From the NCBI GenBank assembly GCA_030647355.1, contig JAUSIS010000013.1, positions 113,117-177,116 of the forward strand: a DNA stretch of 64,000 nucleotides, given 5' to 3'. Below, in pieces: positions 3,123-58,916 of the stretch (position 1 is its first letter; every line of letters begins with the position of its first letter). A program made the position numbers and the translations under genes. The stretch comes from a bacterium. Its GTDB lineage: Bacteria; Patescibacteriota; UBA1384; VFKW01. The notes below the pieces were generated by a model. That model ran no database searches. It was not told where the DNA came from and worked only from the letters and a program-made list of their open reading frames with translations.

Positions 3123-3694
3123 TCGGTGCCATGCATAATTTGGGAAATTACCAAATCATAATCTAGGATTTCTTCTTTTTTAAACCATAACTCAATCTCA
3201 CACTTGGCTTCCTCAACCGAACCGGAAGCATGAACTAATGTTTGCATTGATCTACCTAGTTTGTCAGCTACACTATATGACTCTTGAGAATAGTCGCCCC
3301 TGATACTGCCTAAATCGGCAGTTAATGGATTGGTAGTTCCAACCGTCTTCCTGCCAAGTTCAACAGCATGCGCACCTTCCCATATCATCGCTAACATTGG
3401 TCGCCCGCTGTAATACTCGATTAGCCCCTCGCGTATCTGGGTAGCCAGTTCGCGGGGTGTTAAATCAATTTTATTTCCCCACGCTTCGTGTCCTTTGAGT
3501 GCGTTCGTCCCCGTTGGAATAAGCCACGCATCATCATTAGGATAATGTTTGCCAATAAGCTCTTCCGTCGGTGCAATTAATTTCGCCGCAACCAGTTTAA
3601 GACCCCTGCGCTCGAATCTGGTTATTAACTCGCCGATTAATTGCCGCTGAACCGACTCCGGTTTAATCGCAATAAACGTCTGCTCTTTTACCAT
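3101..3694 (-). CDS. ndk: Nucleoside diphosphate kinase, with an internal insertion
   Basis: IAIKPESVQRQLIGELITRFERRGLKLVA, a catalytic His in LVHASGS, and EEAKCEIELWF. Confidence 0.85.
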   Translation of the reverse strand: MVKEQTFIAIKPESVQRQLIGELITRFERRGLKLVAAKLIAPTEELIGKHYPNDDAWLIPTGTNALKGHEAWGNKIDLTPRELATQIREGLIEYYSGRPMLAMIWEGAHAVELGRKTVGTTNPLTADLGSIRGDYSQESYSVADKLGRSMQTLVHASGSVEEAKCEIELWFKKEEILDYDLVISQIMHGTDWGKVKR

Positions 3695-24084: not shown

Positions 24085-24843
24085 TTATTGCACTTGCGAT
24101 ACTTTCCAAAGCTGCTGGAACCAGTTGCGCATGGCAGTCGCGTTTTCCCTGGAAGTAATCACCACACCAAAATTTTCTTTTATTGAGGTCAAAATTGCTA
24201 CATTATCGCCATAAATATAATAATGCGCCGGACACTCAAAACCAACTGGCCCTATTCGCCTCTTTCTCAAGCCTTCCTTCGGATCAAAAAATGAATCAAT
24301 CTTGCCTCTAACCCATACCGAGCGCGTCCAAATCCCCTTCTTTACCTTTCGAGCCACCCAATCAATAAAAAAATTCTTATCCAAAATATCAGTCAATTTG
24401 TTAGTTTCTCCGACATAATAAATCTCATCAACTGGCGTCTCAAGAATCTCCTCGTAAATCGCCTTAATCTCCTCACCTCGGAAAAACCGGACCCTTGGCT
24501 GAAACGGCGAAAACTCGTATAACCGGTTGAATTCCGGCAGAAATTTCTCCAAATTCTCCGCCTGTTCCTGCAATTTCTCCTGCTTGCCTCGAATCAGCGT
24601 CATAATCTTACGAGGCGGATAAGGTATATAAATCCGACGTGTTGCCGTCTGCGTAATCTCAATTAATCCCCTATCTCTTAAGTTTTCTAATTCATGAAAA
24701 ACCGTCGTCCTCGGCAAACCAGTCTTTTCTTTAATTGACACTATACTCGATTCACCAAGTTCAAGACAAGCCAAATAAACTTCAATCTCTTTTTCACTTA
24801 AATCCAATTGTTTTAAAAAATCATCGAATTGCATACTGTCCAC
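24085..24843 (-). CDS. TrmB family transcriptional regulator
   Basis: N-terminal HTH LSEKEIEVYLACLELGESSIVSIKEKTGLPRTTVFHELENLRDRGLI typical of TrmB. C-terminal sensor domain. Confidence 0.7.
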   Translation of the reverse strand: MDSMQFDDFLKQLDLSEKEIEVYLACLELGESSIVSIKEKTGLPRTTVFHELENLRDRGLIEITQTATRRIYIPYPPRKIMTLIRGKQEKLQEQAENLEKFLPEFNRLYEFSPFQPRVRFFRGEEIKAIYEEILETPVDEIYYVGETNKLTDILDKNFFIDWVARKVKKGIWTRSVWVRGKIDSFFDPKEGLRKRRIGPVGFECPAHYYIYGDNVAILTSIKENFGVVITSRENATAMRNWFQQLWKVSQVQ

Positions 24844-36722: not shown

Positions 36723-39700
36723 CTATTCCTCCGCCGGCACTTCCACCACCGACGTGATCGTACCCGTCGGTAGGTAAGACACGATAAACGCCCGGGAAAT
36801 CCCTCCGTAGTAACCAGTAACTTTCATTTTATTCAATGACTGGGTGTAGGCAATAAGGTTAAGGTAAAAAACCGCATTCCGCACATAGTCTAAAGTCCCT
36901 GGATGATATTGTCGTATAAATTGCTGTGTTGCTAAGTTATTGGGAGTTGCATACCAAACAGTCCATGGAGGTGACGGGGGCTTGTAATAGTGGAATTCTT
37001 GTTCCCAATATTTATTAAACGGGCTGGCAAGGTCGTCTATATCTATTGTAATCTCAACTAAATCATCGATTAGCGCATTTCCAAATCCCCTCTTAATTGC
37101 CAGCCCATTGAGCCATTCTTTCCAATAATCACCGTCTCCCCAAGTACTTGAATCATCAGGATCGTATCCCGGCGGTACGCCTTTGGAGAAAGCACTATTC
37201 ATCAAATCTAAATATTCGATCTGGCTGGATAGGCCGGATGCGCCAGCCAACGAACGGGATGAAATAAACAGAAATCCTCCTTTATCATCCACGCTGGCTA
37301 CCGCCATATTGGCCAGATCGCAAACCTGCCGGGCATTCCCGTCATGGTCTGTTCTGGTTTCGACCTTTTCATTATCCTCATTGTAGTAAGGAAGCTTTCT
37401 TAGCTTCCATCCCGGCTTACTTTGACATGGATAAGTTGCCAGTACATCAAATTTTAGTCCTAAATCGGTAATAGCATAAGCATTTAGACCGTAACCCATA
37501 TAACCACCCGTAACATATCCGGGTTCGCCTATCTTTAACACATCCCTCAATCGGGCGCTATTTAAACGAAAAATTGGATACAAACCGTTCCGGTCATAAA
37601 GACTGGCAAAAATCGGATGAGAAAATTCTACTGATGATCCATCTGTATTGCCCGGACTATTAGACCAGACGTCAAAGCCGTATTCGTTTGGAGGTGGGCT
37701 TCCTATCGGGGGTATATCCGCCAAATCTACTTTGGGATTCTGATCGGACCGTTCATAAGCATAACTGTAATCACCGCTATAAAAAAGCAGATTACCGGCG
37801 GTCTGATCGATGCTAATCGACTGGCTGCCGCTTGTAGAAATCGGCCGGTCTAACCCAAGTTTATCGTCAGGATTATTTTTGAAAAGTTCCCAAGTCTGCT
37901 GGGTTCCGTCAGTTTTAGCGTTAAGTTTCCATAAGAAATTCTTATTCGAAAGACTCGCCCCCGAGGAGCTTCCTCCCCACAGGTAAAGAAAATCTTCTCC
38001 TGCTATAGAGGCATAGTTTAAAGATCCGGCAGTTCTCGTCCTTGGCTTCTTGCTTGGATCAGTATCAACTTTCGGATCAGAATCTACTTTGACATATCTC
38101 CAGTCAACTCTCCAGTTATCAGGTAGTCCGGCTAATTGAGAAACTTCACCTACCCACGAAATAAATGATTGATCCGAAGTGTCTGTATTCAAAACAAACA
38201 TCTTATTACTGCCATTAGAAGTAAACAGATCGCCAGACGTCAAACTATAGGAGGGTTGATACCGCAGTAGTATCCTATGATCATTGTCAGCAATACTCTC
38301 AATATTATCAACAGTCGCAATAAACAGCTTGTTATTTCCGCTGATAATCGGCCCTAATGTTATCTGCTTGCCAGCATACAAACCCCTTGCTTGAGAATCG
38401 TCAAGCTGTAAAGTTGCAGGAGCATCGGTAATCAAGTCTTTAGTGATTGATGTGCTTAAAACCTCGCTGTTATAACTGCCTAAATTTACACTAAACATGG
38501 TTAATCCGTTATTTGCCAAAACCTCGCTGGTTCCACCAAGTATTAAATTATTTTCAAACTCAATTTTTTGACATCCTCGAGATCCAGGCGGATTAGTCGA
38601 AAAACAGCTAGCATCATAAAATATTTTTTTAACAGTACCCTTCATTCTCTGATTTTGCGTTCCTTGATCATCAACCGGACCAACAAGGTACTCCATTCCC
38701 AACGCAATCCCCCTTATGGTGCCTTGAGCTACTTTCAATACTTTAACTGTATCGTTCGGCACGGAGTTATTCATCCTCCCTTCGGGCACTAAAACAGCCT
38801 CATTCTGAATACTGCCTCCCAAGTGGTACATATTAAAATTAACGTTGCTGGATACGCCCTTGGGTTTCAGAAAATGCCAGGTCGGGCTCGCAGTAGTTAC
38901 GCCGGTTAATCTCCATGATGGCTTTTGAATTTTCATGTGGCTGTATCCGCCGAATACATACAAAGTATCCTCGGAAAAAACATAATAGCCCTGCGGATTA
39001 GACATATAATTCGGGCCCTCATAGAGCTGCCTGATGGATTTAACGGGTTGACCGGCTATCACCCCGACTTCGCTAACCCTCCCCCAGTAAACCTCATCAT
39101 AACTATCGGTTTGCTCTAAGTTTGGACTGTTTCCATAATAAGTGGCGACATCTCCCGGCGCCAAGCACCTGTTGCCATTACCCAAAGGATTAGCGCTATT
39201 CGTCATCTCGTCGCAACCCGGAGTTACGGTTGTTGCATTCGATAATTGAAGGGTTAATCTCCTTGTATCCGCAACTGACTCTGTATTCCTGCCCGCCAAT
39301 GGCTGGTCAAAGTGCAATTGATATCTGTAGGTTCCAAATCCAACGTCAGTACCGTCTGGAAACCTGGTAATTTTCGAAATCTTCCCCTTTAAATCAACAT
39401 ATTCAGTATCCCCGCCCGAACCATCTTTGGGCCCGTAAACTCGTATAATATCTCCCACCGTTAATCCGTCCGGATATACCTCATCGCCCACAGCGCCATG
39501 AGGAGCATATACGCTCGAGCGCATACTTAAAGTCACTTCATGTATTTCATTAGCTGGCAGCGTCGTTTTGGGCGTGATATTCGGCTCAATCCAATAATCG
39601 GTCGTTGGATTTACGGCCGAAGAACTGTTGATTGATTTATGCGAAAACACTTCTTGGAGGTAATCTCCGTCAGCTAGTACATCTATAACCGGACGGTCTA

Positions 39701-42113
39701 TAACCAGATTCCACTGGGGACTGGCAATAGTCGGATCGATTCTCCAGACATCCGCTGTGCTTCCGATGCTTGTCATGCCTGAATCCCCTACATTTCCAAG
39801 GTTGCCGCCTGCAACTACCAAATTCTTATTGTCTCTGCTGTAACTAACCAGCGCCTCGCTTCTTGGCAACGGACGGTTAATATTTGTGTTAGCAGGCTTA
39901 ATCAGTTTCCATGTTTGAGGTATGCCTCCGCTCAAACTTAGCTCCCAAAGATCATTCTTCTTATTCACGCCCATATTGAATATTATTGCTGTAAGCGGGT
40001 TATCATCCGAATCATCTGCCGGACGTAGATCCCTGTTTAGATATGTTTCATTAGCTGCCATATTGCCGTTTAGCGCGCGATTAGAAATATCTTTGCCGCC
40101 ATACAAGTACGCTATGTTCTCTGACTCGTCATAAACCATTCCGTGTCCTGACCTGGGAGTCGGGCCGAAATTTAAATCCACATGCATAGTCCCCGCTGCC
40201 CCCGGACCATAATCAATGCTGTTTACTCTGCCCCACAATGGCTCCAGATTGATATCGTCTGGCTCTAGCTGAACTATTGAACCGATCGTATAACCGCTTA
40301 TATTAGCAACCGGAACGGGTTGGTTCGCTCCTGGCAAAATCTCTACCGCAGTCCCTCCGCTCCAAATACTTTTTATTTTACTGATGTCATAGTTCCCGTT
40401 TAAATCGTATTTATTATATTCTTTTTGACCGGTAATAGTTTTAGGAAGTACATATACAGAATAGCCGTGACTCTGAAAATATTCATCATACTGAAAATTC
40501 ACAAAATTGACTCCATATCCGAAATTCATCCTATCGCCTTCCAGCGTCCCGCCAAAATCAAACTTATCAGGAATGAATATCAACGGCTTGGTTGTCAATC
40601 CGGTTCCGTCAATTATATGGATAATATCTGCCTTACCGCATACTTCGCGTGCTCCTCCGTTGTGAACTGGTTGAGAGAAATAGAGCGAATCCGGATCCAC
40701 CGTGAAAAAATTTCCGGCCGTATCGATGCTCGTAATAACCCCATCAACTGTAATGTTGAAATTATAAAAATTGCTCTTCCAATATTCCTGTCCGGTCGTA
40801 TACAGCGGATCAGGCCAAGGGTGACTATCCAATTGCAAATAATAATTATACTTAGCCATGACCTTGAGAAATGCCACTCTATCGCCAATTCCGAAAGACG
40901 ATGCTTGTCCGTATTTTAAGTAAACTTTGGTGTCCGGACCCATAAACGCCGTATCCAAAGATTTTGCGATGTTAACATCGTAAGCCAGTTCGCTTGCCGG
41001 AAAAGTCAGAACGGTTGGGGTTGTTTTCTTATAAAGCTGCCGTACATAATAATCCCCGCTAATTTTTTGAGTACTCCCGTTAGCGACAACAGATGCTTTC
41101 TCCCAATTAATTACATTCGAGGGAGTATTATCCGACGGATTGTAGGCATTCTTCATTACCCATAAATCATTACGCTTTCCTCCAGACAAATTCAGCTCGT
41201 CATTGATGATAGCTTTAGTATTGGGATCCATATTCTTTTCAATCGGTCCCCACTTAAATTGATAATTAGTGTCACCAATAAAAGGAGGGTTGATAATACC
41301 TTCGGTCGGATTAGGTAAATCGCTGTTGGCATCTATCATCAGCTTTCCCCCGACGCGATCCACATTCCCTGTTATCCAGTCTTCCAAATTAGTTCTCTCT
41401 TGGCCATCGAGTACCAGACTGTCTTCCGGCAAAGATAAAATCAAAAGATCGTATTTCAAATAGCCCGGATTACTGAACAGACCGGAATATTTCACCCCGC
41501 CAGTATTAGTCACGCCAACATTCCCTTGATCCAGCGGTCCGCCCATTAAAACCTGCCAGTATTCAATCTTGTTTTTCGCATAAACCTTGCCTGTAGAAGG
41601 GTCAATCGGTGCAAGGGGATTCACAAAATCCTTAAATCCGTTATCTTTCAATATAGTACTGCTAGACATTGCCGATCCAATCGTAGTAAAGATATCATTG
41701 GGCTGGACGTAACTTCCTGCAGCTGCATCCCACGCTGAAATTACTGCGACATTGGTGCACCTGGAAATTGTTTTTATTTTTTCTTCCGGAGTAAACGAGT
41801 AATATTTGATATATGGCGCTTTCTTGGAATCTGTTGAAGCTTGGTTTCCAGTGTCAAAGTTTATTAGCATTGTCTGATCAAAAGACGGGTCACCGGCCAA
41901 TTTTTTGCTTAAATCAGAAACTCCTGCCAGCGCCGCTTCCCTCGCCACTCTCGCGTCATTATAAGAAGCCGCATTGCCGATTATGGAGTAACTGTTTATC
42001 GCCGCTCCTAAGGTCGCCGCCGTCATCAAAGTAACAATAAGCAAAGTAAGAACCAATACAGTCCCCTGCTTTTTGAGACCTGTACAATTAAATTTTATTT
42101 TGCCTAAAGCCAT
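36723..42113 (-). CDS. Giant (1796 aa) T4P-associated surface protein: PilX_N-like N-terminal prepilin-type helix plus Kelch/beta-propeller-like repeats (PilY1-like tip adhesin candidate)
   Basis: N-terminus KKQGTVLVLTLLIVTLMTAATLGAAINS resembles the PilX_N hydrophobic helix. Multiple Kelch-like segments (for example SGHGMVYDESENIAYLYGGKD). Last gene of the minus-strand prepilin/pilC cluster. Confidence 0.65.
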   Translation of the reverse strand: MALGKIKFNCTGLKKQGTVLVLTLLIVTLMTAATLGAAINSYSIIGNAASYNDARVAREAALAGVSDLSKKLAGDPSFDQTMLINFDTGNQASTDSKKAPYIKYYSFTPEEKIKTISRCTNVAVISAWDAAAGSYVQPNDIFTTIGSAMSSSTILKDNGFKDFVNPLAPIDPSTGKVYAKNKIEYWQVLMGGPLDQGNVGVTNTGGVKYSGLFSNPGYLKYDLLILSLPEDSLVLDGQERTNLEDWITGNVDRVGGKLMIDANSDLPNPTEGIINPPFIGDTNYQFKWGPIEKNMDPNTKAIINDELNLSGGKRNDLWVMKNAYNPSDNTPSNVINWEKASVVANGSTQKISGDYYVRQLYKKTTPTVLTFPASELAYDVNIAKSLDTAFMGPDTKVYLKYGQASSFGIGDRVAFLKVMAKYNYYLQLDSHPWPDPLYTTGQEYWKSNFYNFNITVDGVITSIDTAGNFFTVDPDSLYFSQPVHNGGAREVCGKADIIHIIDGTGLTTKPLIFIPDKFDFGGTLEGDRMNFGYGVNFVNFQYDEYFQSHGYSVYVLPKTITGQKEYNKYDLNGNYDISKIKSIWSGGTAVEILPGANQPVPVANISGYTIGSIVQLEPDDINLEPLWGRVNSIDYGPGAAGTMHVDLNFGPTPRSGHGMVYDESENIAYLYGGKDISNRALNGNMAANETYLNRDLRPADDSDDNPLTAIIFNMGVNKKNDLWELSLSGGIPQTWKLIKPANTNINRPLPRSEALVSYSRDNKNLVVAGGNLGNVGDSGMTSIGSTADVWRIDPTIASPQWNLVIDRPVIDVLADGDYLQEVFSHKSINSSSAVNPTTDYWIEPNITPKTTLPANEIHEVTLSMRSSVYAPHGAVGDEVYPDGLTVGDIIRVYGPKDGSGGDTEYVDLKGKISKITRFPDGTDVGFGTYRYQLHFDQPLAGRNTESVADTRRLTLQLSNATTVTPGCDEMTNSANPLGNGNRCLAPGDVATYYGNSPNLEQTDSYDEVYWGRVSEVGVIAGQPVKSIRQLYEGPNYMSNPQGYYVFSEDTLYVFGGYSHMKIQKPSWRLTGVTTASPTWHFLKPKGVSSNVNFNMYHLGGSIQNEAVLVPEGRMNNSVPNDTVKVLKVAQGTIRGIALGMEYLVGPVDDQGTQNQRMKGTVKKIFYDASCFSTNPPGSRGCQKIEFENNLILGGTSEVLANNGLTMFSVNLGSYNSEVLSTSITKDLITDAPATLQLDDSQARGLYAGKQITLGPIISGNNKLFIATVDNIESIADNDHRILLRYQPSYSLTSGDLFTSNGSNKMFVLNTDTSDQSFISWVGEVSQLAGLPDNWRVDWRYVKVDSDPKVDTDPSKKPRTRTAGSLNYASIAGEDFLYLWGGSSSGASLSNKNFLWKLNAKTDGTQQTWELFKNNPDDKLGLDRPISTSGSQSISIDQTAGNLLFYSGDYSYAYERSDQNPKVDLADIPPIGSPPPNEYGFDVWSNSPGNTDGSSVEFSHPIFASLYDRNGLYPIFRLNSARLRDVLKIGEPGYVTGGYMGYGLNAYAITDLGLKFDVLATYPCQSKPGWKLRKLPYYNEDNEKVETRTDHDGNARQVCDLANMAVASVDDKGGFLFISSRSLAGASGLSSQIEYLDLMNSAFSKGVPPGYDPDDSSTWGDGDYWKEWLNGLAIKRGFGNALIDDLVEITIDIDDLASPFNKYWEQEFHYYKPPSPPWTVWYATPNNLATQQFIRQYHPGTLDYVRNAVFYLNLIAYTQSLNKMKVTGYYGGISRAFIVSYLPTGTITSVVEVPAEE

Positions 42114-45470: not shown

Positions 45471-46664
45471 TTAAAAAGCATTAACCAAGCTATATATCGG
45501 ACCTAAAATACTAATGACCACAAATCCAACACCGCCGCCCAGTACAATAAAGATAAACGGTTCCAAAAGTGATGTAAATGTCTTTAATTTATTATCCACT
45601 TCTTCCTCATAATACTCGGCAAGAGTATCGCACATTCCCGAAAGATCACCAGTCTGCTGACCGACATAGAGCAACTGGCTCATAAGCGGTGGGAAATATT
45701 TACTTTTCTTCAGTACCGAGCTTATCGGCAAACCCTGCTCCAGCGATTTAGATATACTCAATACCAGATCTATGTAAATCGTATTTGTCGTAATAGTCGC
45801 CAATATATTCACCGACTCGATAATCGGCACTCCAGCCAGAAGCAGCAAGGAAAAAGTCCGATTAAAACGAGCATAAAAAACTTCCCTAACAAGAGTCCCA
45901 AACACCGGAAAATTTATGCTTATAACACTTTTAGTCTTTTTGCCAGTGTTACTAATCATAAATACTTTATATCCGGCCACCAAAAATATTATACCCATAA
46001 TAATCAAATACCAATACTGAGTCATAAACCTGCTCAACGCAATCAAAATTTGAGTTTGTATAGGCAAAGCCAGATTTTGCTCCTCAAAAATCTGACTAAT
46101 AGAAGGAATGACCTTAGTCATCACAATAAAAATGACAGCTATCATCACACACACGATTACAATCGGATAAACCATAGCCCCACGGATTTTAGCAGTAAAA
46201 GAAGCCGAAGTCGCCACTTCAGCCGATAACTCGTTAAGAACAATTTCCATCTTACCCGTCGCCTCCCCGGCGCGCAGAACCCCGGTTTCTATACTGGGAA
46301 AAACTTGCGGATAATTTTCCATCATCCGTGATAATGGAAAACCATTCTGTAATCCAAGACTCATCTCCTCTAATACTCTTCCCAGCGATTTATTGGGTGT
46401 TTGCCTGGCAATCTCGATCGCTTGTGTAATAGAAACACCGGCTTTAAGCATTGTCGTTAACTGCCGATACAGCAAACTGCGATCTCTCGCCTTCACAGAA
46501 AAAGACAGAAATATGTCCTGCCATTTGGTTTTCTCAGTAATTGAGATTACTTTGAGTCCCCGTTTTTCCACATCTTTATGCACTTGTTCCATATCAGAAG
46601 AGGCAACCTTGCCGTTGACAATTTGCCCTTTGTCATCACTCGCCTTAAAAGTAAAGATTTTCAT
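45471..46664 (-). CDS. pilC: Type IV pilus assembly platform protein PilC (GspF family)
   Basis: Two GspF-type repeats each with three TM segments, including the QLLYVGQQTGDL...L motif region. Confidence 0.85.
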   Translation of the reverse strand: MKIFTFKASDDKGQIVNGKVASSDMEQVHKDVEKRGLKVISITEKTKWQDIFLSFSVKARDRSLLYRQLTTMLKAGVSITQAIEIARQTPNKSLGRVLEEMSLGLQNGFPLSRMMENYPQVFPSIETGVLRAGEATGKMEIVLNELSAEVATSASFTAKIRGAMVYPIVIVCVMIAVIFIVMTKVIPSISQIFEEQNLALPIQTQILIALSRFMTQYWYLIIMGIIFLVAGYKVFMISNTGKKTKSVISINFPVFGTLVREVFYARFNRTFSLLLLAGVPIIESVNILATITTNTIYIDLVLSISKSLEQGLPISSVLKKSKYFPPLMSQLLYVGQQTGDLSGMCDTLAEYYEEEVDNKLKTFTSLLEPFIFIVLGGGVGFVVISILGPIYSLVNAF

Positions 46665-47350: not shown

Positions 47351-47653
47351 ATGGATCAGGCGCCACAAAAAACGGATCAAACACCAGCCGGTGAATCAAA
47401 AGATGTGCTGGTAACAATGGATCGGTTAATTCAGGCAACTAACCAATTAACCGATATTCAAAAAAAAATATACAAACAAAACAAAATTGGTCCAGTTATG
47501 ATTCGCAGTATCGCCTATGCCCTTGGTTCCACTCTTGGTTTGGCTTTAGTTATCTCTATACTATTTTATATCTTAAAATCAATCGGGGTGCTTGACAGCC
47601 TCTCCGGCGTATTTGGCGATCTTAAAGACTTAAAAGATCTCTACACTAACTAG
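47351..47653 (+). CDS. Small membrane protein with C-terminal DLKDLKD motif
   Basis: GGAGGGGAG RBS, one TM helix, C-terminal GDLKDLKDLYTN. Related C-terminus in the 16584-16796 ORF. Confidence 0.4.
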   Translation: MDQAPQKTDQTPAGESKDVLVTMDRLIQATNQLTDIQKKIYKQNKIGPVMIRSIAYALGSTLGLALVISILFYILKSIGVLDSLSGVFGDLKDLKDLYTN

Positions 47654-48422
47654 TCTCTCGCAAAAACTGCCAAAACAGCTCAAAAATCGTCTTTTGACTA
47701 CCTGCCAGTTCTTTATCTTGAATTATCGTTGCCATCGGTCTTTGAAACGATGCCTTCAATACATTATCTCCATAAACCAAAACAAACCCAGGCAATGTAA
47801 AACCAACCGGCAATAACCTGATCGGCCAGCCCCCATCAATTTCCACATCTTCTCCCCGAAGTTTATTAATCGTCTTCTGATCAATTCTCCTTATTTCCAT
47901 ATGCCTCTTGGTCGCCTCCTCACTAAACCACTGAAAATGATCCGGCATCCATCTATTCCATGGTTCAAGCGACCCGTAGATCATTAGCGGCTGCTTACTG
48001 GTTAAGCAGAGATTTAATGCTTCAACTAAACCCTTGGCGCCATCGTAAAAATGCACGCTCGGCTTTCCCACCACCTCGTCGGAAAGCCCTCTAAGTTGGG
48101 GAATCAATTCCTTTAACTCCTCCTGCTTCTCGTCTAAAATCTTCTTTTGACGCGCAACTTCCTCCGCTTTATCTCCGATAAAATCAATAAGCTTCTCTGG
48201 TCCCTCGGCGACAAAAGTCTTGCGCTTCCCTTCCGCACTGCCTATCGCGGCGAAACCATTTTTTACAAGGTCGTCCAATATGTCGTAGACGGTTGTCCTT
48301 TGCACCTTAGTTTCTTTGGCAATCTCGCTAGCTGACATCTCCCCATTTTGTAAAAGAGCCAAATAAATAAGCGACTTCTTATCGGAAAATCCCATTTTTT
48401 GTAATGTTTGAGAAAATGACAT
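47646..48422 (-). CDS. TrmB family transcriptional regulator
   Basis: N-terminal HTH LSDKKSLIYLALLQNGEMSASEIAKETKVQRTTVYDILDDLVKNGF. Same architecture as 24085-24843. Confidence 0.7.
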   Translation of the reverse strand: MSFSQTLQKMGFSDKKSLIYLALLQNGEMSASEIAKETKVQRTTVYDILDDLVKNGFAAIGSAEGKRKTFVAEGPEKLIDFIGDKAEEVARQKKILDEKQEELKELIPQLRGLSDEVVGKPSVHFYDGAKGLVEALNLCLTSKQPLMIYGSLEPWNRWMPDHFQWFSEEATKRHMEIRRIDQKTINKLRGEDVEIDGGWPIRLLPVGFTLPGFVLVYGDNVLKASFQRPMATIIQDKELAGSQKTIFELFWQFLRETS

Positions 48423-48560
48423 ATTTAGCTCCTGTCGACAATATCTCTACAGTAAAATAATAATCTGCCTCCAGTAAAATGTCAAGTATTCAAAACCTGT
48501 CGCTGGTCAGCCGACAATATTTCATCCCCCGATTTTCCCAATTTTAATCGAAAAATCCGC

Positions 48561-48899
48561 CTAATCCAGCTTACCGCTCACTAGTCTTTCCAAAAAAGTC
48601 AAATCCTTCATGCAATAGCTAAGTGCCGCATTCACAATATCCGACTTGCTGATTTTTAACCGCCTTTCCATGCGCAGTCGAAATTTAGCTACTTCCAGAT
48701 CCTCGAGAATCTGCGGATTGAAATAAAAAGTGAACTTGACAGGGTCAGTTTCCTCCAGCTTGGCAATCTTGAAATTTGAACCGCTCCTTATCCCCCTTTC
48801 CTCCGGCTCTTCCACGGAGGGTTTATCCTCGGTTTGCTTCCCGTGCGAACCGAATAGAAGGTCCGCTCCGGGTAGATCCTCCCTACCTGTTTTTGACAT
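48561..48899 (-). CDS. Small ParA-partner protein (putative centromere-binding/partition adaptor)
   Basis: 112-aa ORF overlapping the 3' end of parA by about 17 nt (coupled). C-terminal KISKSDIVNAALSYCM helix. No ParB N-terminal domain. Confidence 0.4.
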   Translation of the reverse strand: MSKTGREDLPGADLLFGSHGKQTEDKPSVEEPEERGIRSGSNFKIAKLEETDPVKFTFYFNPQILEDLEVAKFRLRMERRLKISKSDIVNAALSYCMKDLTFLERLVSGKLD

Positions 48900-49698
48900 T
48901 TTCTACCTCCTTAGCCACTGCGCGATAAGCATCGGCCGCTTCTGAAGTCTTGGCGTGCGTTAGCACCGACTCGCAAGCGACTGTCGCATAATCAAACCGC
49001 ACAGTCTCTTTAATTACCGTTTGAAATACTTTATCTCCGAACGCCTCTCTCGCCCTCTCGGTCACTTGGCGGGAATGATGCGTCCGGCTGTTGTACATCG
49101 TAAGTAGAATACCGATAAGCTCCAAATTGGGGTTCATGCCGCTTTCTTTTATCTTATCAATCGTGTCCATCAGTTGCTTCATACCGCGCATCGCCCAATA
49201 AGCGCACTGCAATGGCACAATCACGCCATCCGACGCTACCAGCGCATTTAGAGTTAAAAGGCCTAAACTAGGCGGGCAATCAATCAAAACGTAATCGTAG
49301 GCGTTTTTGTGAGGTTTTAAGAGGTCATGAAGCGTCTTCTCGCGATTCTCACGCGCAAAAAGCTGAATTTCCGCCGCCGTCAGATCCAATGTTGCCGGCG
49401 CCACTTTCAACCCGGGTATCTTCGTTTTGTGTGAAACTTTAGGCAGAGTGAGCTTATCGTCAAACAACGCATGATAAATACTTCTGTTCCCGATATTATC
49501 AACGTCCACACCCAAACCAATAGACATATTAGATTGGGGATCGAAATCCACCAGAAGAACGTCCTTACCTCTTTCCGCTAGCGCCACACCTAAATTAATC
49601 GTGCTGGTCGTCTTACCAACCCCGCCTTTTTGATTGGCTATCGAGATGACGCGCGTATTTCGGTTTTTGTCCTTGAACATATCAAAGGGACGCAACAC
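48883..49698 (-). CDS. parA: ParA/Soj family partition ATPase
   Basis: Deviant Walker A KGGVGKTT, the DFDPQ motif, and a typical Soj-length protein. Confidence 0.85.
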   Translation of the reverse strand: MLRPFDMFKDKNRNTRVISIANQKGGVGKTTSTINLGVALAERGKDVLLVDFDPQSNMSIGLGVDVDNIGNRSIYHALFDDKLTLPKVSHKTKIPGLKVAPATLDLTAAEIQLFARENREKTLHDLLKPHKNAYDYVLIDCPPSLGLLTLNALVASDGVIVPLQCAYWAMRGMKQLMDTIDKIKESGMNPNLELIGILLTMYNSRTHHSRQVTERAREAFGDKVFQTVIKETVRFDYATVACESVLTHAKTSEAADAYRAVAKEVENVKNR

Positions 49699-49739
49699 AA
49701 CCTCCTCCTTACCTGTTCGAAATTATATACGGAAACTTG

Positions 49740-51050
49740 AATATATAATTACAATTCCTATTGCAGACATAGATTCAATCTTACGGTAATATAATATTAA
49801 TTTTATGTATACATTACACTATACATGCCATTGTATTCTACGTTATTACATGTATTATTTTTTGTCAAGTTTCACTTAATATTATTTGCACGTATTAAAT
49901 TATTCGACTGGTTAATTATTCTATATACGCTTATTAGCGTTTACGTGTAATAATCTATTTCCGCTATATTTTTTAATTGTATTATTATCGCAAAAGAACT
50001 AATTCGTTGATAATACTTGCATACCTCCATGTTAGACTCAGACAGTTCAAAATGTTACAACATAACGTATTCTAATAATAACTTCGGCAATAAAATTCCT
50101 CATGTCAAAGATAAAATTCATGTTCAAAGCGATCCTAAAGCCAAAATAGGTACGATTACAAATCATCTAATAACTAGCAATGTTCACTATAACAATTTGA
50201 AAAACAACAAGTAATAAAATCTATATTACATCAATCGCCACATCGTTCAAATCGTCAGAACCTGCACTAAGTAGTCGGCATTCAATATCTAACATTCCGC
50301 ACTCAAGATTTTACATTTAACATTTGTCAATTTAACAATGCAATTGTCCGCTCGTAAACAATAATTTCTAGCTGAAATATAAAACAAAGTGTCTGCTCCA
50401 AAAGCAATATTTACGATTGTAAAATATTAACAAATAATTTAAGTTGGACGATTGCTCAGTTATTAAAATCAACAAACATACTATGAAACAAAAACTTCTA
50501 AATATTAATATACAGATCGTCGCTCAACTAATAGAATTGGTAAATATACTAACAGAAATACTACATTTCAAAGTCCATAATCATTTGAACAATAATATTT
50601 TATTTTACAACTAATTGAATATGATTTTTGGTCGCAATAATGGCAAAAATGCAAAGCAATATACTCACCAATCGTATTATATATATTGAACTAAAGAGCA
50701 AAATAAGCGCATAAGGTACCTTAAAAAGTGAGTAACCGTATATCAAGTGAGATATTTGTTGTCGAAGTATAATAGACAGATACTAAACTGTTTATACAAT
50801 TATTGTCGAAATCTTTTCTACATTACTTTACGATAATCTACATTAGAATCAGCCAATTAACCACTCAAAAACTAATAATATATCAACTACTTGAGTTTAA
50901 GGAATTTTATGATGATTTAATACTTAGACTTACGACATCCATTTAGCTTGCATTCCCTATATTATTCAATTACACTTGAACGTTAATTGCAACAAATTAT
51001 TGTACAACCTATATTGACATAATAATCAAAAACCCTATTGCATTTGGCAA
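49740..51050. other. 1.3-kb extremely AT-rich non-coding tract between parA and groEL (candidate replication origin or decayed mobile DNA)
   Basis: No ORF longer than 65 aa on either strand. Much lower GC than either neighbour. Adjacent to parA. Confidence 0.4.
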
Positions 51051-51082
51051 AAGAAAAGTCCCGGCTCGCGGGACTTTTCTTA
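51049..51082. terminator. Bidirectional terminator downstream of groEL
   Basis: AAAAGAAAA-GTCCCGGCTCGCGGGAC-TTTTCTT. Confidence 0.6.
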
Positions 51083-51104
51083 CTTTGAATTTATATTTTT
51101 TAGC

Positions 51105-52781
<1,677 letters not shown>

Positions 52782-52927: not shown

Positions 52928-53227
52928 CTATTCTATAACCCCTAAAATATCTTCTTCTTTTACAATCTTGTATTCTTTGCCTTCAAATTTAATCGAATCC
53001 CCGCCATACTTACTAAACAAAACGACATCCCCCTGCTTTACTCCTAAGGAAACCAGTTTTCCGTCAATCCATTTGCCTGTCCCTATCGCTACTACCTTCC
53101 CTTCCTGTCTTTCTTCTTTGGCCGACTCCGGCAGAATTATCCCGCCCTTTGTCTTCTCTACTTTCTCAAGCGGGAAAACGAGCACGCGATCGCCCAGCGG
53201 TCTTAGCTTTGCCATATCACTCCTCAC
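52928..53227 (-). CDS. groES: Co-chaperonin GroES
   Basis: MAKLRPLGDRVLV...GKVVAIG...Y typical GroES, 99 aa. Confidence 0.9.
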   Translation of the reverse strand: MRSDMAKLRPLGDRVLVFPLEKVEKTKGGIILPESAKEERQEGKVVAIGTGKWIDGKLVSLGVKQGDVVLFSKYGGDSIKFEGKEYKIVKEEDILGVIE

Positions 53228-54607: not shown

Positions 54608-54666
54608 GAACTCCAGGAAAGGAATGCGCACACCCAGCACCCCCAAGGAGTAACTGCAAACCCGCA

Positions 54667-54689
54667 GGCCTCGATCCGAGGCCTTTTTT
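54667..54689 (+). terminator. Intrinsic terminator (GGCCTCGGATCGAGGCC+T6+CATAC)
   Basis: Perfect hairpin plus T-run plus CATAC tail. Confidence 0.6.
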
Positions 54690-55306
54690 CATACAAAAAA
54701 TGCTTATGAGACACTCCTAATGACGCGGCATAACTCTCAAGTACGATTCTAACGGCACCGTATCAGTATTAATCTTTCTATAACCCACCCCTTCCACCCG
54801 TAACTAGTATTAAATAATTTAATTATTCCCCCTATACAAGTATAGTATCTTACTTGTAATACCTATCAAGTAATCCAATTTCCAGAATTCAAAAGGCAGT
54901 GGCAACGAGAAGGGGGTACTCGTATATGCCACCACCAGAATCCCATATTAGCAAAGCCCCCAAATTCTGTCAAGGTTCACGATGTTAGTTCAAACCATAT
55001 TGAAAAATCTCCTGTTTTAGTCGCCAACCGATCGTCGCTATACTCAATTGTGGTATAATGTAATCACTCTAACTAATTCTCCTCGGACAAACGCCTATGG
55101 ATATATTTTGATGTATTGAGCTATTCGACGAGGAGGGGATTATGAGCTGTCTAAGAGACTATTCAACAGTCTCCAGCCAGCTGGATTAATGTAAATTGTC
55201 CAGCAACAGATAGTAAGTTTGAGGTATAAAGAATTGACAAATCCTAACCTATAAATTAAAATAAGCGCGGCAATACAAGAAAAAACTGAAAAAGGAGGAC
55301 CTGTAA

Positions 55307-56248
55307 TTGCCAGCCATATTGCGAATCGTACCCAGAAAAACATATGCTACTTTCTCGGAGTTCATTGCAGCGACGCCTCCGTACTCGATAGGAATTGACG
55401 GCATCGTAGCCGAATCAACCCAGTACGAGCAAAAAGGGCCATACCTGAACCTAAACCATCATGACTCCTGTGACCGATTGGCCACGCGCAGTGCCTGCGG
55501 ACAAGCGTTGTGCTATATGCGAGCTGGCTTGAATGAGCAGTTTCGCCTCAATGGCCAGTACCACGCGATTGTGCACGCCAATCACCCCGACGAGGATGTC
55601 TGCACCGCCTGGTTCGTCCTGAAACACCCGGAGCTGACATGTCAGACAATCCACCCCTTGCTGAATCGGTTGATTGCCGTCGAGGATACTATGGACACCA
55701 TGGCCGGCGCTTACCCGTTCCACAAGGATTTACCTCTGCTGGAAGAGTTCGCCTGGATCTTCGAGCCCTACACTCGAGCCAGACAACTGGGAATCATTCA
55801 CCAACCGGCTATCAGCGAACATACCATGATCGGCATCGTTACCGATGTCGAGAATCGTATCATGCGCCACATCACAGGTAAGGGTGAGAGAATCGCCCTA
55901 GATACCCGCTATACCTTGTTGGATAAGGTGGGCCCGGTCGCCATTATCGAGGAGACCGGCCAGCATGCCCGCATCGGACTATTCGGCGATGGCCACAAGG
56001 CATATCTGTCCATCCAGGAATTGTCCAACGGCAATCTCAAGGTATCTGTCGGCCGCATGTCGCCCTTCATCGGATTCAATGTCATCCAGTTCCTAAGCCT
56101 CTGCAACCGAGAGGAGAGACCCTCGGGGGGCAATATCTGGGGCGGCGGCAACAATGTCGGCGGAAGCCCTCGTGACGGCGGCACCAAACTCAAGCTTGTC
56201 ACCCTCAAGGGAGCCCTGGTGCATTGCATCAGACCGATCAAAGCCTAG
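55307..56248 (+). CDS. Hypothetical protein (313 aa; GC-rich cassette)
   Basis: GGAGGA RBS. His/Asp-rich motifs (NLNHHDSCD, VHANHPDED) suggest a metal-dependent enzyme but fit no family I can assign. Terminator at 56242-56276. Confidence 0.45.
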   Translation: MPAILRIVPRKTYATFSEFIAATPPYSIGIDGIVAESTQYEQKGPYLNLNHHDSCDRLATRSACGQALCYMRAGLNEQFRLNGQYHAIVHANHPDEDVCTAWFVLKHPELTCQTIHPLLNRLIAVEDTMDTMAGAYPFHKDLPLLEEFAWIFEPYTRARQLGIIHQPAISEHTMIGIVTDVENRIMRHITGKGERIALDTRYTLLDKVGPVAIIEETGQHARIGLFGDGHKAYLSIQELSNGNLKVSVGRMSPFIGFNVIQFLSLCNREERPSGGNIWGGGNNVGGSPRDGGTKLKLVTLKGALVHCIRPIKA

Positions 56249-56276
56249 CGATAACATCAATAGGCTTCTTTTTTTA
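56242..56276 (+). terminator. Intrinsic terminator with conserved loop GCGATAACATCAA (copy 1)
   Basis: AGCCTA-GCGATAACATCAA-TAGGCT+TCTTTTTTT directly after the stop of the 55307-56248 ORF. Confidence 0.55.
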
Positions 56277-56392
56277 TTTCTTCTTTGCCTTTTAAAATTA
56301 TTTCGATCACTAAATTATTATTAATAATTTAGTATTTTTGATTTTAATGATAGCAATAACATATTCTTAGGTATTAGAAAAGTAAATGAGAA

Positions 56393-57031
56393 TTATTTAT
56401 TCAACTTCAGTTTCTTAAATATTTCAATTGTTTTTTTAATATCTGAGTCACGATTGTTCTTTGGATCTCTCCATTCATAAGAATTATCATAACCAGCCTG
56501 TTCAGCAACAAGTTTTATAAAACATGATTTGGGAGCATCTTTAATAGAATGAGACATATAATAGTGCTTATTCTCAGATCTATACATCCAATAATCTTTG
56601 TGTTTCATGTTATGTAAAGAAATTATAGTAAATTGTAATCCCAACTCTAATTCATCAAACAACTTTTCTAAATTATCACGAGAAAAATATATAGGAATGA
56701 TATGCAGGTGTGCATGAGTAATACTGAGTGGATGCCTTCCCTTTGATAAAGAACCATGTTCAAAAATTATTGGGTAAGTTCCAATAATTTTAAGATATTC
56801 ATCACAAATTCTATCTAATAAATTTTCTAACCTAAATAGATTACAAGAATCTAATTCTGCAAACCCATTGATATGTTGTTTGGAAATAATCATTAAATAA
56901 TTAGGAATAGACATCCCTAATGCTGGTTTAATTAATACCAAATCATCCTCATAAAGAACTGTATTTTCTGGTTTAGAGTAAAGTTCTTTATCAGTTTGAT
57001 TTACTAAAGAGCAAAACACACAATCTTTCAT
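56393..57031 (-). CDS. HIT (histidine triad) family nucleotide hydrolase/transferase
   Basis: N-terminal CVFC and the histidine triad ITHAHLHIIP (HxHxHxx). Extremely AT-rich. Confidence 0.75.
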   Translation of the reverse strand: MKDCVFCSLVNQTDKELYSKPENTVLYEDDLVLIKPALGMSIPNYLMIISKQHINGFAELDSCNLFRLENLLDRICDEYLKIIGTYPIIFEHGSLSKGRHPLSITHAHLHIIPIYFSRDNLEKLFDELELGLQFTIISLHNMKHKDYWMYRSENKHYYMSHSIKDAPKSCFIKLVAEQAGYDNSYEWRDPKNNRDSDIKKTIEIFKKLKLNK

Positions 57032-57038
57032 TAGTTCA

Positions 57039-57521
57039 TTAATCTTTCTTGATTATATGTGTTAAAGTGTCCAATTTGTTGTTCACCATCAAATCTTTAA
57101 CAGTGAATGGTTTAAGATCTATTTCTTCTAATTCATCAATAGAAACCCATTTGATAAATAAGTGTTTTTCTTCACCACGATCAATTTCTATAACTTCTCT
57201 GTCAACTGTTTCAACGTCTTCTTCTAGTTCAATAATGTAGTAGAATTCTACACCATGTTGAACAATTCCTTTTTTCTCATAGAAATTCTCTTGAATACAT
57301 AATAGATTTGTATTTTTAACAGTGTAATCTAATTCTTCCTTGATTTCTCTAGTAACAGCAGTAGTAGAATCTTCGCCTATTTCAATATGTCCGCCTGGAA
57401 TGTGATAATATGGCGCATTATCCACATTCATAATTAGGAATTTGTCATTGTGCTTGATAATTCCTACAACTCGATTATAGTAATTATAATCATCCGTTTT
57501 AAATTTAACTTCTTGTTTCAT
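57039..57521 (-). CDS. NUDIX hydrolase
   Basis: Nudix box GGHIEIGEDSTTAVTREIKEELDY (GX5EX7REUXEEXGU). Start at MKQEVKF after an AAAGGAAA RBS. Overlaps the upstream kinase by about 16 nt. Confidence 0.75.
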   Translation of the reverse strand: MKQEVKFKTDDYNYYNRVVGIIKHNDKFLIMNVDNAPYYHIPGGHIEIGEDSTTAVTREIKEELDYTVKNTNLLCIQENFYEKKGIVQHGVEFYYIIELEEDVETVDREVIEIDRGEEKHLFIKWVSIDELEEIDLKPFTVKDLMVNNKLDTLTHIIKKD

Positions 57522-58224
57522 TTTCAATATTTCCTTTCTTATAAATATTTTCAATTTGTCTTATATCCATAAAATTATTGGTTGTATCGTAAACAATGTT
57601 TGCTTTTGCCCCATTGTTCAATATACTATACAAATTCATGTGTCGTAAAATATCAACACCATACTTTATCCCATCAGAGCCAAGTTTCTCTCGTTCTATA
57701 AACCTTGCTACAAGAACAGATTCTTCACCCGTTAACATTATAGACAATGTTGAATCGTTCCAAATATCTGTTAGTGGCAGTAAAGCATGATTTAATACAA
57801 TTAAGTCAGGTTTATCCAATGGACTCCACTTGATTATTTTACTGTATTTAGATAAGAAATCTTCATAATCTAAGTCCTTAAAATCGTTTAATATTTTAAG
57901 AATTGTTCTATTTATGTATTCCATTATAACTTCGTACCATTCTATATATTCATCAAGAGTTATAATCTTTTCATAAATAGCACACCTCAGAAAGTACGTT
58001 CTCAAATCTTCACTTTTCTTAATTGGTTCATTGTGAGTAAATCCAAACACATTGTTTTCAATATCTTCTTCAAAAAACGTTGTTCTCAAATACTCTAAGT
58101 CTAAAGAAAGACCATTATGTAAAGAAGCAAAGGAATTACACAGTGTTGTTTTACCACAACAAGGCAACCCCGCAATACTAATAATCTCTGTCATTGTGTC
58201 CTTTCTTAATGAATGGTTACTCAT
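57505..58224 (-). CDS. P-loop nucleoside/nucleotide kinase-like protein
   Basis: Walker A IISIAGLPCCGKTTL resembles uridine/nicotinamide-riboside kinase-type P-loops. Substrate unknown. Confidence 0.55.
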   Translation of the reverse strand: MSNHSLRKDTMTEIISIAGLPCCGKTTLCNSFASLHNGLSLDLEYLRTTFFEEDIENNVFGFTHNEPIKKSEDLRTYFLRCAIYEKIITLDEYIEWYEVIMEYINRTILKILNDFKDLDYEDFLSKYSKIIKWSPLDKPDLIVLNHALLPLTDIWNDSTLSIMLTGEESVLVARFIEREKLGSDGIKYGVDILRHMNLYSILNNGAKANIVYDTTNNFMDIRQIENIYKKGNIENETRS

Positions 58225-58406: not shown

Positions 58407-58916
58407 TCACTCCCCACGGTTGCAGAGAAGAGCAACGATAGGTAATGGAACGCTAATTCCTTCTTCTCGACATAGAGCCAAAATAGTCGCTGCCCCTTCC
58501 GCGTCATCGGGAGTATGCAATCTATTTTCAGCTAGTTTGTCTTGAAGTGATAGACCGTCGTAACCCATCAGTACCAGCTCATCCTTCGAGTGATAGCAAA
58601 ACTTTTTCCTGATTCCATCCGTATCCATTCTTCCTTTAAGCTGTCGTAGAACTTCCCAAATATCCGTATTTGTGGGATTTTTGACTACGATAACCATCGA
58701 AAGACCAAACGAGATGGCCTTAACTGTCGAAGAGTAAGTTGGCTCCACTACTTTCTCTGGATAAATCATTTGGACGATTTCCGGCCTTATTTGCCAGTAT
58801 TCTTTCCATACTATTTCTAAGCCCCCTTCCTCAAGACATCTGATGATGTCATTTTCCAAACTATCCCTGATAGAGTCAGGTTTAAGAATTACTAGTCCAT
58901 ATTGCATTGCTAGCAC
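58407..58916 (-). CDS. Divergent nucleoside diphosphate kinase-like protein (second NDK-fold paralog)
   Basis: GLVILKPDSIRDSLENDIIRCLEEGGLEIV aligns with the NDK N-terminus (IKPDGV...RFEKKGFKLV). NRLHTPDDAEGA aligns with the catalytic NxxHGSD region, with the catalytic His retained. Confidence 0.5.
   Translation of the reverse strand: MLAMQYGLVILKPDSIRDSLENDIIRCLEEGGLEIVWKEYWQIRPEIVQMIYPEKVVEPTYSSTVKAISFGLSMVIVVKNPTNTDIWEVLRQLKGRMDTDGIRKKFCYHSKDELVLMGYDGLSLQDKLAENRLHTPDDAEGAATILALCREEGISVPLPIVALLCNRGE

Follow-up and report, generated by a model that had tools for sequence, protein, structure and literature searches.

The 64,000-nucleotide stretch analysed here (hereafter the window), taken from contig JAUSIS010000013.1 of a genome of the candidate phyla radiation (CPR), carries on its minus strand a parA gene and, overlapping it, a small open reading frame (ORF) of 112 aa, with a long AT-rich tract immediately upstream of parA. 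The order of features on this strand is groES, groEL, a terminator, the AT-rich gap, parA, the 112-aa ORF and a gene of the TrmB family (Table 1). The locus is probably a chromosomal partition (or positioning) cassette consisting of a ParA ATPase and a ribbon-helix-helix (RHH) adaptor, which lies beside a long AT-rich spacer that is not an origin, in a Berkelbacteria-like genome. The original prediction described the outward features of this region correctly. The small ORF overlaps parA and has no match to ParB/Srx, consistent with the lack of a ParB N-terminal domain that had been noted, and the tract is indeed the longest ORF-free gap in the window, with limits slightly wider than the 49740-51050 first given. 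Its longest ORF has 65 aa, as foreseen, and its GC content (28.3%) is far below that of coding DNA (45.2%) and of third codon positions (46%). The tract is authentic, since it is present in identical form in an independent assembly of run SRR13727527 (L001).

The parA product matches the Pfam families AAA_31 (1.5e-61) and CbiA (6e-28), and the solved structures closest to it are those of chromosomal ParA/Soj proteins (8ray, 5.5e-67; T. thermophilus Soj, 1wcv, 1.4e-55). It possesses the deviant-Walker-A motif KGGVGKTT and no N-terminal helix-turn-helix (HTH), and its size (271 aa) is within the range of the ATPases of the type Ib/SegAB-like group (about 210-280 aa). Its N-terminus, MLRPFDMFKDK, is kept in relatives. 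On the basis of its sequence, parA encodes a Soj-type deviant-Walker-A partition ATPase.

The 112-aa ORF corresponds to the NCBI entry Q7S37_04870, annotated as a hypothetical protein and encoded on a contig of 241,868 bp, and no family name was obtained for it from Pfam, NCBIfam or PHROGs; Pfam and NCBIfam also gave no ParB/Srx (CTPase) domain and no HTH remnant. Three modules can be distinguished in 17 close homologues: a conserved peptide at the N-terminus, spanning residues 1-22 (..DLPGADLLFGSH.K), a variable linker predicted to be disordered (about 23-50) and a highly conserved C-terminal part of about 58 residues, with a predicted RHH at about 54-108. The peptide follows the consensus M-[SA]-K-x3-5-DLPG[AT]DLLFG, in which L9, P10, G11, D13, L15, F16 and G17 are invariant, and the C-terminal module begins VKFTFYFxPQLLEDLEVAKFRLRMEKR-KVSKSDIVNAAL. 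In an AlphaFold2 model, the first half of the protein is disordered, with a short helix at residues 12-16 and a linker with low values of the predicted local distance difference test (pLDDT), and is followed by an extended segment and by helices at 62-79, 85-98 and 100-108 (pLDDT 78-94). A Foldseek comparison of this monomer model with the PDB was uninformative, because of its long disordered part. A profile search of 1.84 billion representatives showed the family to comprise 233 clusters at 50% identity, a few members of which reach Pfam RHH_1 (3e-05) or RHH_3 (1e-04); the best PDB sequence match of the partner is a designed RHH, and the RHH strand motif K-x-T-F-Y is kept family-wide. The partner is a small protein with a predicted RHH DNA-binding fold, and its N-terminal tail is, by analogy with known adaptors, a candidate ATPase-binding/activating peptide. 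Of the two identities originally proposed for this protein, a minimal adaptor that binds a centromere is favoured by the constant presence of this conserved small RHH protein after parA, whereas a degraded parB is rejected, given the absence of any ParB/Srx or HTH remnant and the 27 invariant alignment columns over 17 sequences, which indicate clear constraint. The protein belongs to a widespread small family of predicted RHH adaptors that is unnamed, has no Pfam or NCBIfam model and is paired with chromosomal Soj-type parA genes.

This pairing is found in every related locus that extends far enough: parA lies immediately upstream of the small gene, including in distant metagenome-assembled genomes (MAGs) of Dehalococcoidia, Chloroflexi and Actinomycetes (57-66% GC). 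Ten further distinct genomes (L002, L003, L006, L008, L010, L018, L030, L032, L033 and L034) were gathered from homologues of the 112-aa protein and form, with the window, a set of 11. The synteny groES-groEL-[AT-rich gap]-parA-small ORF-TrmB is found in these ten genomes, where contigs reach far enough, and the closest named relatives are 'Candidatus Berkelbacteria' and one Saccharibacteria-labelled MAG. The contig L010 (JAQTVP010000253.1; 2.6 kb, 40% GC) is labelled Dehalococcoidales; its identity with the window is 74% for groEL, 73% for ParA and 61% for the adaptor, and its placement in a Dehalococcoidales MAG is almost certainly a binning error, the contig being from CPR.

In each of the 11 genomes, the 450 bp upstream of parA contain a palindrome, AAATACNNGTAWW. 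Sites of the form TACNNGTA occur 26 times in these 450-bp regions, with one to three per genome, against 2.07 expected from dinucleotide-preserving shuffles (maximum 7 in 1,000 shuffles), and in the first eight genomes analysed there were 19 boxes in 3.6 kb of proximal sequence versus 20 in the 159 kb elsewhere. Alignment of the parA-proximal regions gave a longer palindromic consensus, AAATAC[AT][TC]GTA[TA]AA, and box positions recur: several genomes have boxes at about -341, -277 and -204, while those of the window are at -251 and -156. The core of the box is also present in 12 distant high-GC cassettes, in which a leader of about 146 bp before parA is packed with it (GTACACGTGTAC, TACATGTA, ACACGTAT); the form ACAYGT/ACRTGT was counted 19 times in these leaders, for 0.53 expected, an enrichment of about 36-fold. 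A predicted cognate palindrome has been kept from 40%-GC CPR genomes to 65%-GC Chloroflexi genomes. Given that the site travels with the cassette across phyla and that K-x-T-F-Y is kept, we infer that the boxes are the operator/centromere of the RHH adaptor. A second array of boxes (Table 1), located beyond groESL at about 5 kb from parA, is a possible additional adaptor site; together with the two boxes of the tract and one at 54917-54924, it makes up five of the eight TACNNGTA sites in the window. In both L003 (position 4509) and L008 (3129), a single perfect 14-bp palindrome is found at 4.7-6 kb from parA. The distribution of these sites suggests that a few dispersed adaptor sites surround groESL-parA.

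The features computed here, namely that parA encodes a ParA ATPase, that its partner has a three-part architecture with a predicted RHH fold, that the two genes are obligatorily paired and that the boxes are conserved and enriched, are consistent with a mechanism that reaches beyond them, to the protein bound to the boxes, the stimulation of the ATPase and a role in segregation. The 112-aa protein would dimerise via its RHH domain and bind the AAATACNNGTAWW boxes of the tract (boxes 1 and 2 of Table 1) and possibly the second array, while its flexible, conserved N-terminal peptide would contact DNA-bound ParA-ATP and stimulate ATP hydrolysis. Together, the two steps would provide both autoregulation of the operon and a specific cargo for ParA, as in SegAB, ParFG and delta/omega. 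In this reading, the tract has two parts, a parA-proximal regulatory/centromere-like region of about 250-400 bp and a distal spacer of about 1 kb with fast turnover.

Table 1. Features of the groESL-parA locus. Positions are those of the window, except for the ORFs of related genomes, which are given by locus.
Feature	Position	Strand	Remarks
parA	48883-49698	-	271 aa, GTG start, AAGGAGGAGG just before the start
112-aa ParA partner ORF	48561-48899	-	17-nt overlap with parA; own AAGGAGG
AT-rich tract	49699-51104		1,406 bp, from parA start to groEL stop
Palindromic box 1, TACATGTA (context TTATTACATGTATTATT)	49847-49854		156 nt upstream of parA start
Palindromic box 2, TACGTGTA	49942-49949		251 nt upstream of parA start
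parA-proximal part of the tract, putatively regulatory/centromere-like, with the boxes	49699-50100		Defined by box content and by alignment among relatives
Distal AT-rich spacer	50101-51050		Fast-evolving, of variable length; no detectable coding, repeat or RNA-structure signal
Small distal element	50760-50809	-	parA sense; kept across lineages
groEL intrinsic terminator hairpin	51051-51081	-	13-bp stem; right-hand boundary of the tract
groEL	51105-52769	-	Upstream neighbour; Cpn60 annotated in syntenic loci
groES	52928-53227	-	Upstream neighbour; Cpn10 annotated in syntenic loci
Second box array, TATACAAGTATA, TTACTTGTAA, ATCAAGTA	54835-54873		About 16-bp spacing, in intergenic region 54608-55306
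TrmB-family HTH regulator	47646-48422	-	Pfam TrmB, 7.8e-15; downstream neighbour kept in the CPR clade only
ORFs with two transmembrane helices in relatives	L002:8162-8923, L008:6646-7341, L030:5640-6407	antisense to parA	

Apart from the tract, the GC content of the window falls below 29% over 1 kb in only one other place, which is coding (56.2-57.6 kb). Long ORFs would be unlikely at 28% GC in any case, so the anomaly of the tract resides in its composition and its length rather than in its lack of ORFs. In every relative, the gap is the longest and most AT-rich intergenic region of its locus. It measures 1,166-2,940 bp at 19-38% GC in eight genomes (the maximum being that of L008); in L034 and L018, it spans at least 1,599 bp (24.5% GC) and at least 1,099 bp (19.5% GC), respectively; it is just 458 bp long in L010 and has about 400 bp of non-coding DNA in L002. 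The non-coding length of the tract across genomes is 0.4-2.2 kb, and it is odd that genomes otherwise so compact should persistently keep a long AT-rich spacer. The second patch of the window as AT-rich as the tract (27-29% GC) extends over 56200-58200 and contains an orphan 212-aa ORF (56393-57031), a NUDIX hydrolase gene (57039-57554) and an AAA_18 kinase-like ORF (57505-58224); this coding patch was possibly acquired laterally.

The sequence of the tract is not conserved. No similarity could be detected between the tracts of the window and of its nearest relative, L034, two genomes in which parA and the partner gene are 77% identical at the DNA level (88% for the ParA protein, 57-60% at third positions). 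Alignment of whole tracts between genomes revealed nothing beyond about 340 nt next to parA, which align among L006, L008, L032 and L033 only (62-74% identity, E 1e-12 to 1e-20). The tract contains no iterons, tandem repeats or over-represented 7-9-mers beyond those found in shuffled sequences. No Rfam family or tRNA was found in the window and five related loci, with sub-threshold matches only on the groEL terminator, and fold z-scores in the tract (-1.9 to +1.4) give no indication of structured RNA; those at the terminator are -5.2 / -3.2 (150-nt segment at 51050) and -4.5 (minus strand, segment at 50975). The cluster of small RNAs envisaged as an alternative for the tract thus finds no support in Rfam matches or folding energies. 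The other alternative, a scar of a lost mobile element, is partly compatible with the variable distal part, but the tract has no match in plasmid or phage collections, and a mobile-element relic was rejected. A hidden or decayed protein gene was also rejected: tblastx among tracts revealed no conserved peptides. Three relatives have an ORF of 231-255 aa with two N-terminal transmembrane helices in the groEL-proximal part of the gap, antisense to parA (Table 1). These ORFs share their place, strand and architecture, yet have no detectable sequence similarity to each other. No match was obtained by tblastn with them or with the window's own 330-aa ORF with two transmembrane helices, and a search of 5.8 billion proteins retrieved no homologue of the L008 ORF. 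The leading-strand bias of the tract (G>C and T>A) is that expected of neutrally evolving DNA. The distal part, about 1 kb (roughly 50100-51050), is considered dispensable, because one lineage (L010) lacks it. It is most likely an indel-prone spacer that gains and loses lineage-specific orphan ORFs and has no sequence-specific function.

One small element of the distal part is nevertheless conserved, in four lineages (window, L003, L006 and L008), about 1.1-1.5 kb upstream of parA. In the sense of parA, it reads TCGACA, about 38 nt, then TG[AT]CT-N9-[TA]CGACAA (TGTCT-N9-TCGACAA in the window). In the L003, L006 and L008 lineages, each locus has a single TGACT-N7-11-CGACA, always in the tract and in parA sense. 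The TCGACA of this element is one mismatch from a -35 hexamer, and promoter-like matches are found on the minus strand at 50809-50766; no gene or RNA downstream of it was identified. It resembles the TGTCG/CGACA boxes that flank, at 48498-48516 and 48433-48440, the strong promoter of the TrmB gene (48485-48457, TTGACA-17-TATTAT, 11/12 match); TGTCGACA is among the boxes of 48433-48516. In five genomes (window, L002, L003, L006 and L008), TCGACA reaches 5-21 per kb in the intergenic region with the TrmB promoter, versus 0.3-1.0 per kb locus-wide, and L002 differs in having five CGCACAATAT repeats in a 453-bp spacer of 25% GC. The TGTCG/CGACA boxes are probably the operator of the TrmB-like regulator itself. 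The window encodes a second TrmB-family regulator (24085-24843, minus strand), and more TrmB paralogues flank the groESL genes of relatives.

Beyond the TrmB gene, two small plus-strand genes (DUF5665 and PRC-barrel) precede a type IV pilus operon. The neighbourhood is of the housekeeping type, with rpsF, ssb, efp, purD and dnaE, together with a tyrosine recombinase of the phage-integrase family. The window also has two nucleoside-diphosphate-kinase-like genes (3101-3694 and 58407-58916, both on the minus strand) and, at 5211-6668 on the plus strand, a gene for a 485-aa protein with a Phd/YefM antitoxin-like domain at residues 9-58, followed by a low-complexity stretch of about 400 residues rich in Pro, Thr and Ala; GC skew in the window reaches its most extreme value (-0.52) at this gene.

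Partition genes are often located near oriC, and AT-rich DNA resembles a DNA-unwinding element. The original prediction therefore proposed that the tract was a possible origin, and suggested that GC skew, degenerate DnaA boxes and the position of dnaA and dnaN be examined. Cumulative GC skew falls monotonically over all 64 kb, and the skew at third codon positions (GC3 skew, plus strand as reference) is negative in 55 of 56 genes, on either coding strand and on both sides of the tract. As its sign does not depend on the coding strand, this asymmetry is linked to replication, with one fork direction over the window: replication crosses the whole region one way, from groES towards parA. The sign of the skew is also uniform across the tract in L003, L006 and L030 (in L002, the skew is weak and uninformative). 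The tract of the window contains no DnaA box at up to one mismatch and, at up to two mismatches, fewer boxes than shuffled sequences (4 versus 6.5); the sole perfect DnaA box of the window (57418-57426) lies inside the NUDIX gene. A Pfam scan of window ORFs revealed neither dnaA nor dnaN (Bac_DnaA, DNA_pol3_beta); the ORFs scanned included all those of at least 300 aa except a 1,796-aa ORF of the pilus operon (36723-42113) and pilC (45471-46664), which were recognised from the corresponding genes of related loci. The only replication genes in the window are the 3' end of dnaE and ssb. The tract has no 13-mer-type repeats, and its AT-richness, which extends throughout, does not discriminate for or against an unwinding element.

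A link with replication is nonetheless suggested by the relatives. A DnaA box is present 46-185 nt upstream of parA in 8 of the 11 genomes, in the same orientation throughout, but not in the window genome, L010 or L032. Five of these boxes are perfect TTATCCACA boxes (L003:9066, L006:9123, L008:9123, L030:7758 and L030:7770), and others have one mismatch (L033:3750, L018 at -46, L034 at -67 and -56, L002:9017); perfect boxes number five in the 2.75 kb upstream of parA versus two in the remaining 179 kb of sequence examined. There is a precedent for the transcriptional control of a par operon by DnaA (PMC13438810). Boxes that are single or double and close to the promoter would agree with a role of DnaA as transcription factor of the par operon rather than with an origin cluster, and they suggest that, in this clade, DnaA controls the par cassette and ties its expression to the initiation of replication. 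That the tract is the chromosomal oriC with parA as its usual neighbour, thus, seems extremely improbable: the adjacency of parA, the AT-rich composition and the DnaA boxes of relatives speak for it, but the skew does not switch, the window tract has no box at up to one mismatch, the boxes of relatives do not cluster and one relative manages with a gap of a mere 458 bp.

Several observations weigh against the interpretation of the locus as a ParA/RHH-adaptor cassette beside a spacer of no particular function. The organism is uncultured and represented by a MAG. The box patterns were defined after viewing the sequences, which makes the box statistics partly post hoc, and exact boxes number only two in the window itself. 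The boxes could be bound by some other factor, such as the neighbouring TrmB-like regulator; this possibility is weakened by the distant loci that keep the box core, in which no TrmB gene was found and the neighbouring genes are not shared. The distal element is conserved in four lineages. At least 1.1 kb of non-coding AT-rich DNA is kept in 9 of 11 genomes despite complete sequence turnover, and the GC content of the tract is far below that of synonymous sites, so its length or composition may be under selection, which the notion of a functionless spacer leaves unexplained. One alternative takes account of this by considering the whole tract to be a sequence-independent regional centromere, or 'landing pad', in which the adaptor would nucleate at the boxes and spread or wrap over AT-rich DNA to form a large complex engaging ParA, with selection acting on length and AT content and not on sequence. 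The constancy of position, length and non-coding composition (19-33% GC) and the fact that the tract is always the longest and most AT-rich gap of its locus are consistent with this idea, as is the ability of SegB to spread laterally from its site and form a superhelical complex (PMC8682754). A weak AA/TT periodicity of about 11.25 bp was detected in five of nine tracts (window, L003, L008, L033 and L034, in which 0-14 of 200 shuffles reach the observed power), but is missing from the other four, and A-tract phasing or curvature was not considered convincing. A regional centromere is, however, unlikely given that L010 and L002 manage without the tract, that distant Chloroflexi cassettes have just a leader of about 150 bp of normal GC content, that the repeat arrays normally needed by RHH centromere-binding proteins are lacking and that the nucleotide skews of the tract are those of neutral leading-strand DNA.

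The tract might also be transcribed, either as a long 5' leader of parA starting from the distal element (50809-50760) or as fast-evolving small RNAs or micro-ORFs. The promoter-like element, conserved in parA sense about 1.06 kb upstream of the gene, the 16 sigma-70-like sites found in 48400-51200 (for 9.8 expected) and a 48-aa hydrophobic ORF that begins 14 nt past the element would fit such transcription. Promoter-like hexamers are to be expected in AT-rich DNA, however, as are hydrophobic micro-ORFs on a T-rich strand; the 48-aa ORF is not conserved and has no Shine-Dalgarno sequence, there is no terminator inside the tract, and neither Rfam, folding energies nor peptide comparisons gave any signal, such that a transcribed tract is just as doubtful as a regional centromere. 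Modules of the type Ib ParA/RHH kind are typical of plasmids. The cassette could serve something other than chromosome segregation: the positioning of another cargo by ParA (a type IV pilus operon lies downstream), an RHH transcription factor co-transcribed with an orphan ParA, or the par/ori remnant of an integrated plasmid. This is quite improbable, because the ParA is closest to chromosomal Soj/ParA proteins, the groESL synteny is stable over 11 genomes in a housekeeping neighbourhood, no rep, relaxase or phage genes are found nearby and the predicted DNA-binding fold of the adaptor has cognate palindromes beside its own operon. The preferred reading, a chromosomal cassette with its operator/centromere next to parA and a dispensable spacer beyond, would make this locus a testable candidate for the way in which DNA is marked for ParA in ParB-less or minimal genomes. 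A much broader proposal, which is hardly likely, is that many bacteria outside the model phyla (CPR/Berkelbacteria-like, Chloroflexi/Dehalococcoidia and some Actinomycetes) pair a Soj-type ParA with a SegB-like RHH adaptor acting on (T)ACNNGT(A), which would replace or add to ParB-parS, and that the 1-2 kb AT-rich tract of CPR would be a regional centromere coupled to DnaA. If true, AT-rich regional centromeres would have an equivalent in bacteria, with the DnaA box near the promoter providing the coupling to DnaA. Nothing specific was found in the literature on ParA/ParB or origins in CPR, Patescibacteria or Berkelbacteria.

Of the known systems, a bacterial oriC resembles this locus in having AT-rich non-coding DNA beside parA and, in the relatives, DnaA boxes near parA, but differs from it in its box cluster, skew inversion and dnaA/dnaN neighbours, none of which is seen at the tract. 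The canonical ParABS system (Soj/ParA, the CTPase Spo0J/ParB and parS) has the same type of ATPase, and the N-terminus of the partner is a short aliphatic peptide after a basic residue, like the motif by which ParB binds ParA (PMC12462528). Unlike ParB, the partner lacks both a ParB/Srx CTPase domain and an HTH, and its predicted fold is RHH. The scan of window ORFs revealed no gene of the ParB family, and parS is not found beyond chance, with a single match to the 16-mer TGTTNCACGTGAAACA at three mismatches in the window (position 26481, for 1.14 expected). The plasmid type Ib systems (ParF/ParG of TP228 and delta/omega of pSM19035) combine a small Walker-type ParA without an N-terminal HTH and a centromere-binding RHH protein, small and dimeric, whose flexible N-terminal tail activates the ATPase, and the sites upstream of their operon double as operator and centromere (PMC12462528). 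The cassette described here differs from them in being chromosomal, in a housekeeping context and stable over its clade, and in having two or three dispersed palindromes of 8-14 bp, 40-95 bp apart, rather than tight arrays of 4-7-bp repeats; nor does the partner belong to ParG or omega at the sequence level (Pfam and PDB searches).

The archaeal SegAB system of Sulfolobus provides a striking architectural parallel. It differs from the cassette in its box sequence, and the ParA found here is of the typical bacterial Soj type. SegB structures are not among the PDB profile matches of the partner (E up to 10; up to 1). Since no sequence homology to SegB, ParG or omega was detectable, the likeness claimed is one of fold and mechanism, both predicted, and not of family membership. 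SegB is a protein of 109 aa with a disordered N-terminus that stimulates SegA, a RHH with extra helices and palindromic sites upstream of segA (PMC8682754), and its sequence has conserved ends and a variable middle (PMC12139799). In both systems, two overlapping or adjacent genes begin with a ParA-type ATPase, and the partner, of about 110 aa, has a short conserved N-terminal tail, a variable middle and a conserved C-terminal part of about 60 aa corresponding to a RHH (predicted here) with extra helices; both also have palindromes just upstream of the ATPase gene and further dispersed sites. SegB has been described as archaea-specific, whereas the partner family is bacterial (CPR, Chloroflexi and Actinomycetes), and the cassette would, thus, represent a bacterial parallel to the architecture of SegAB.

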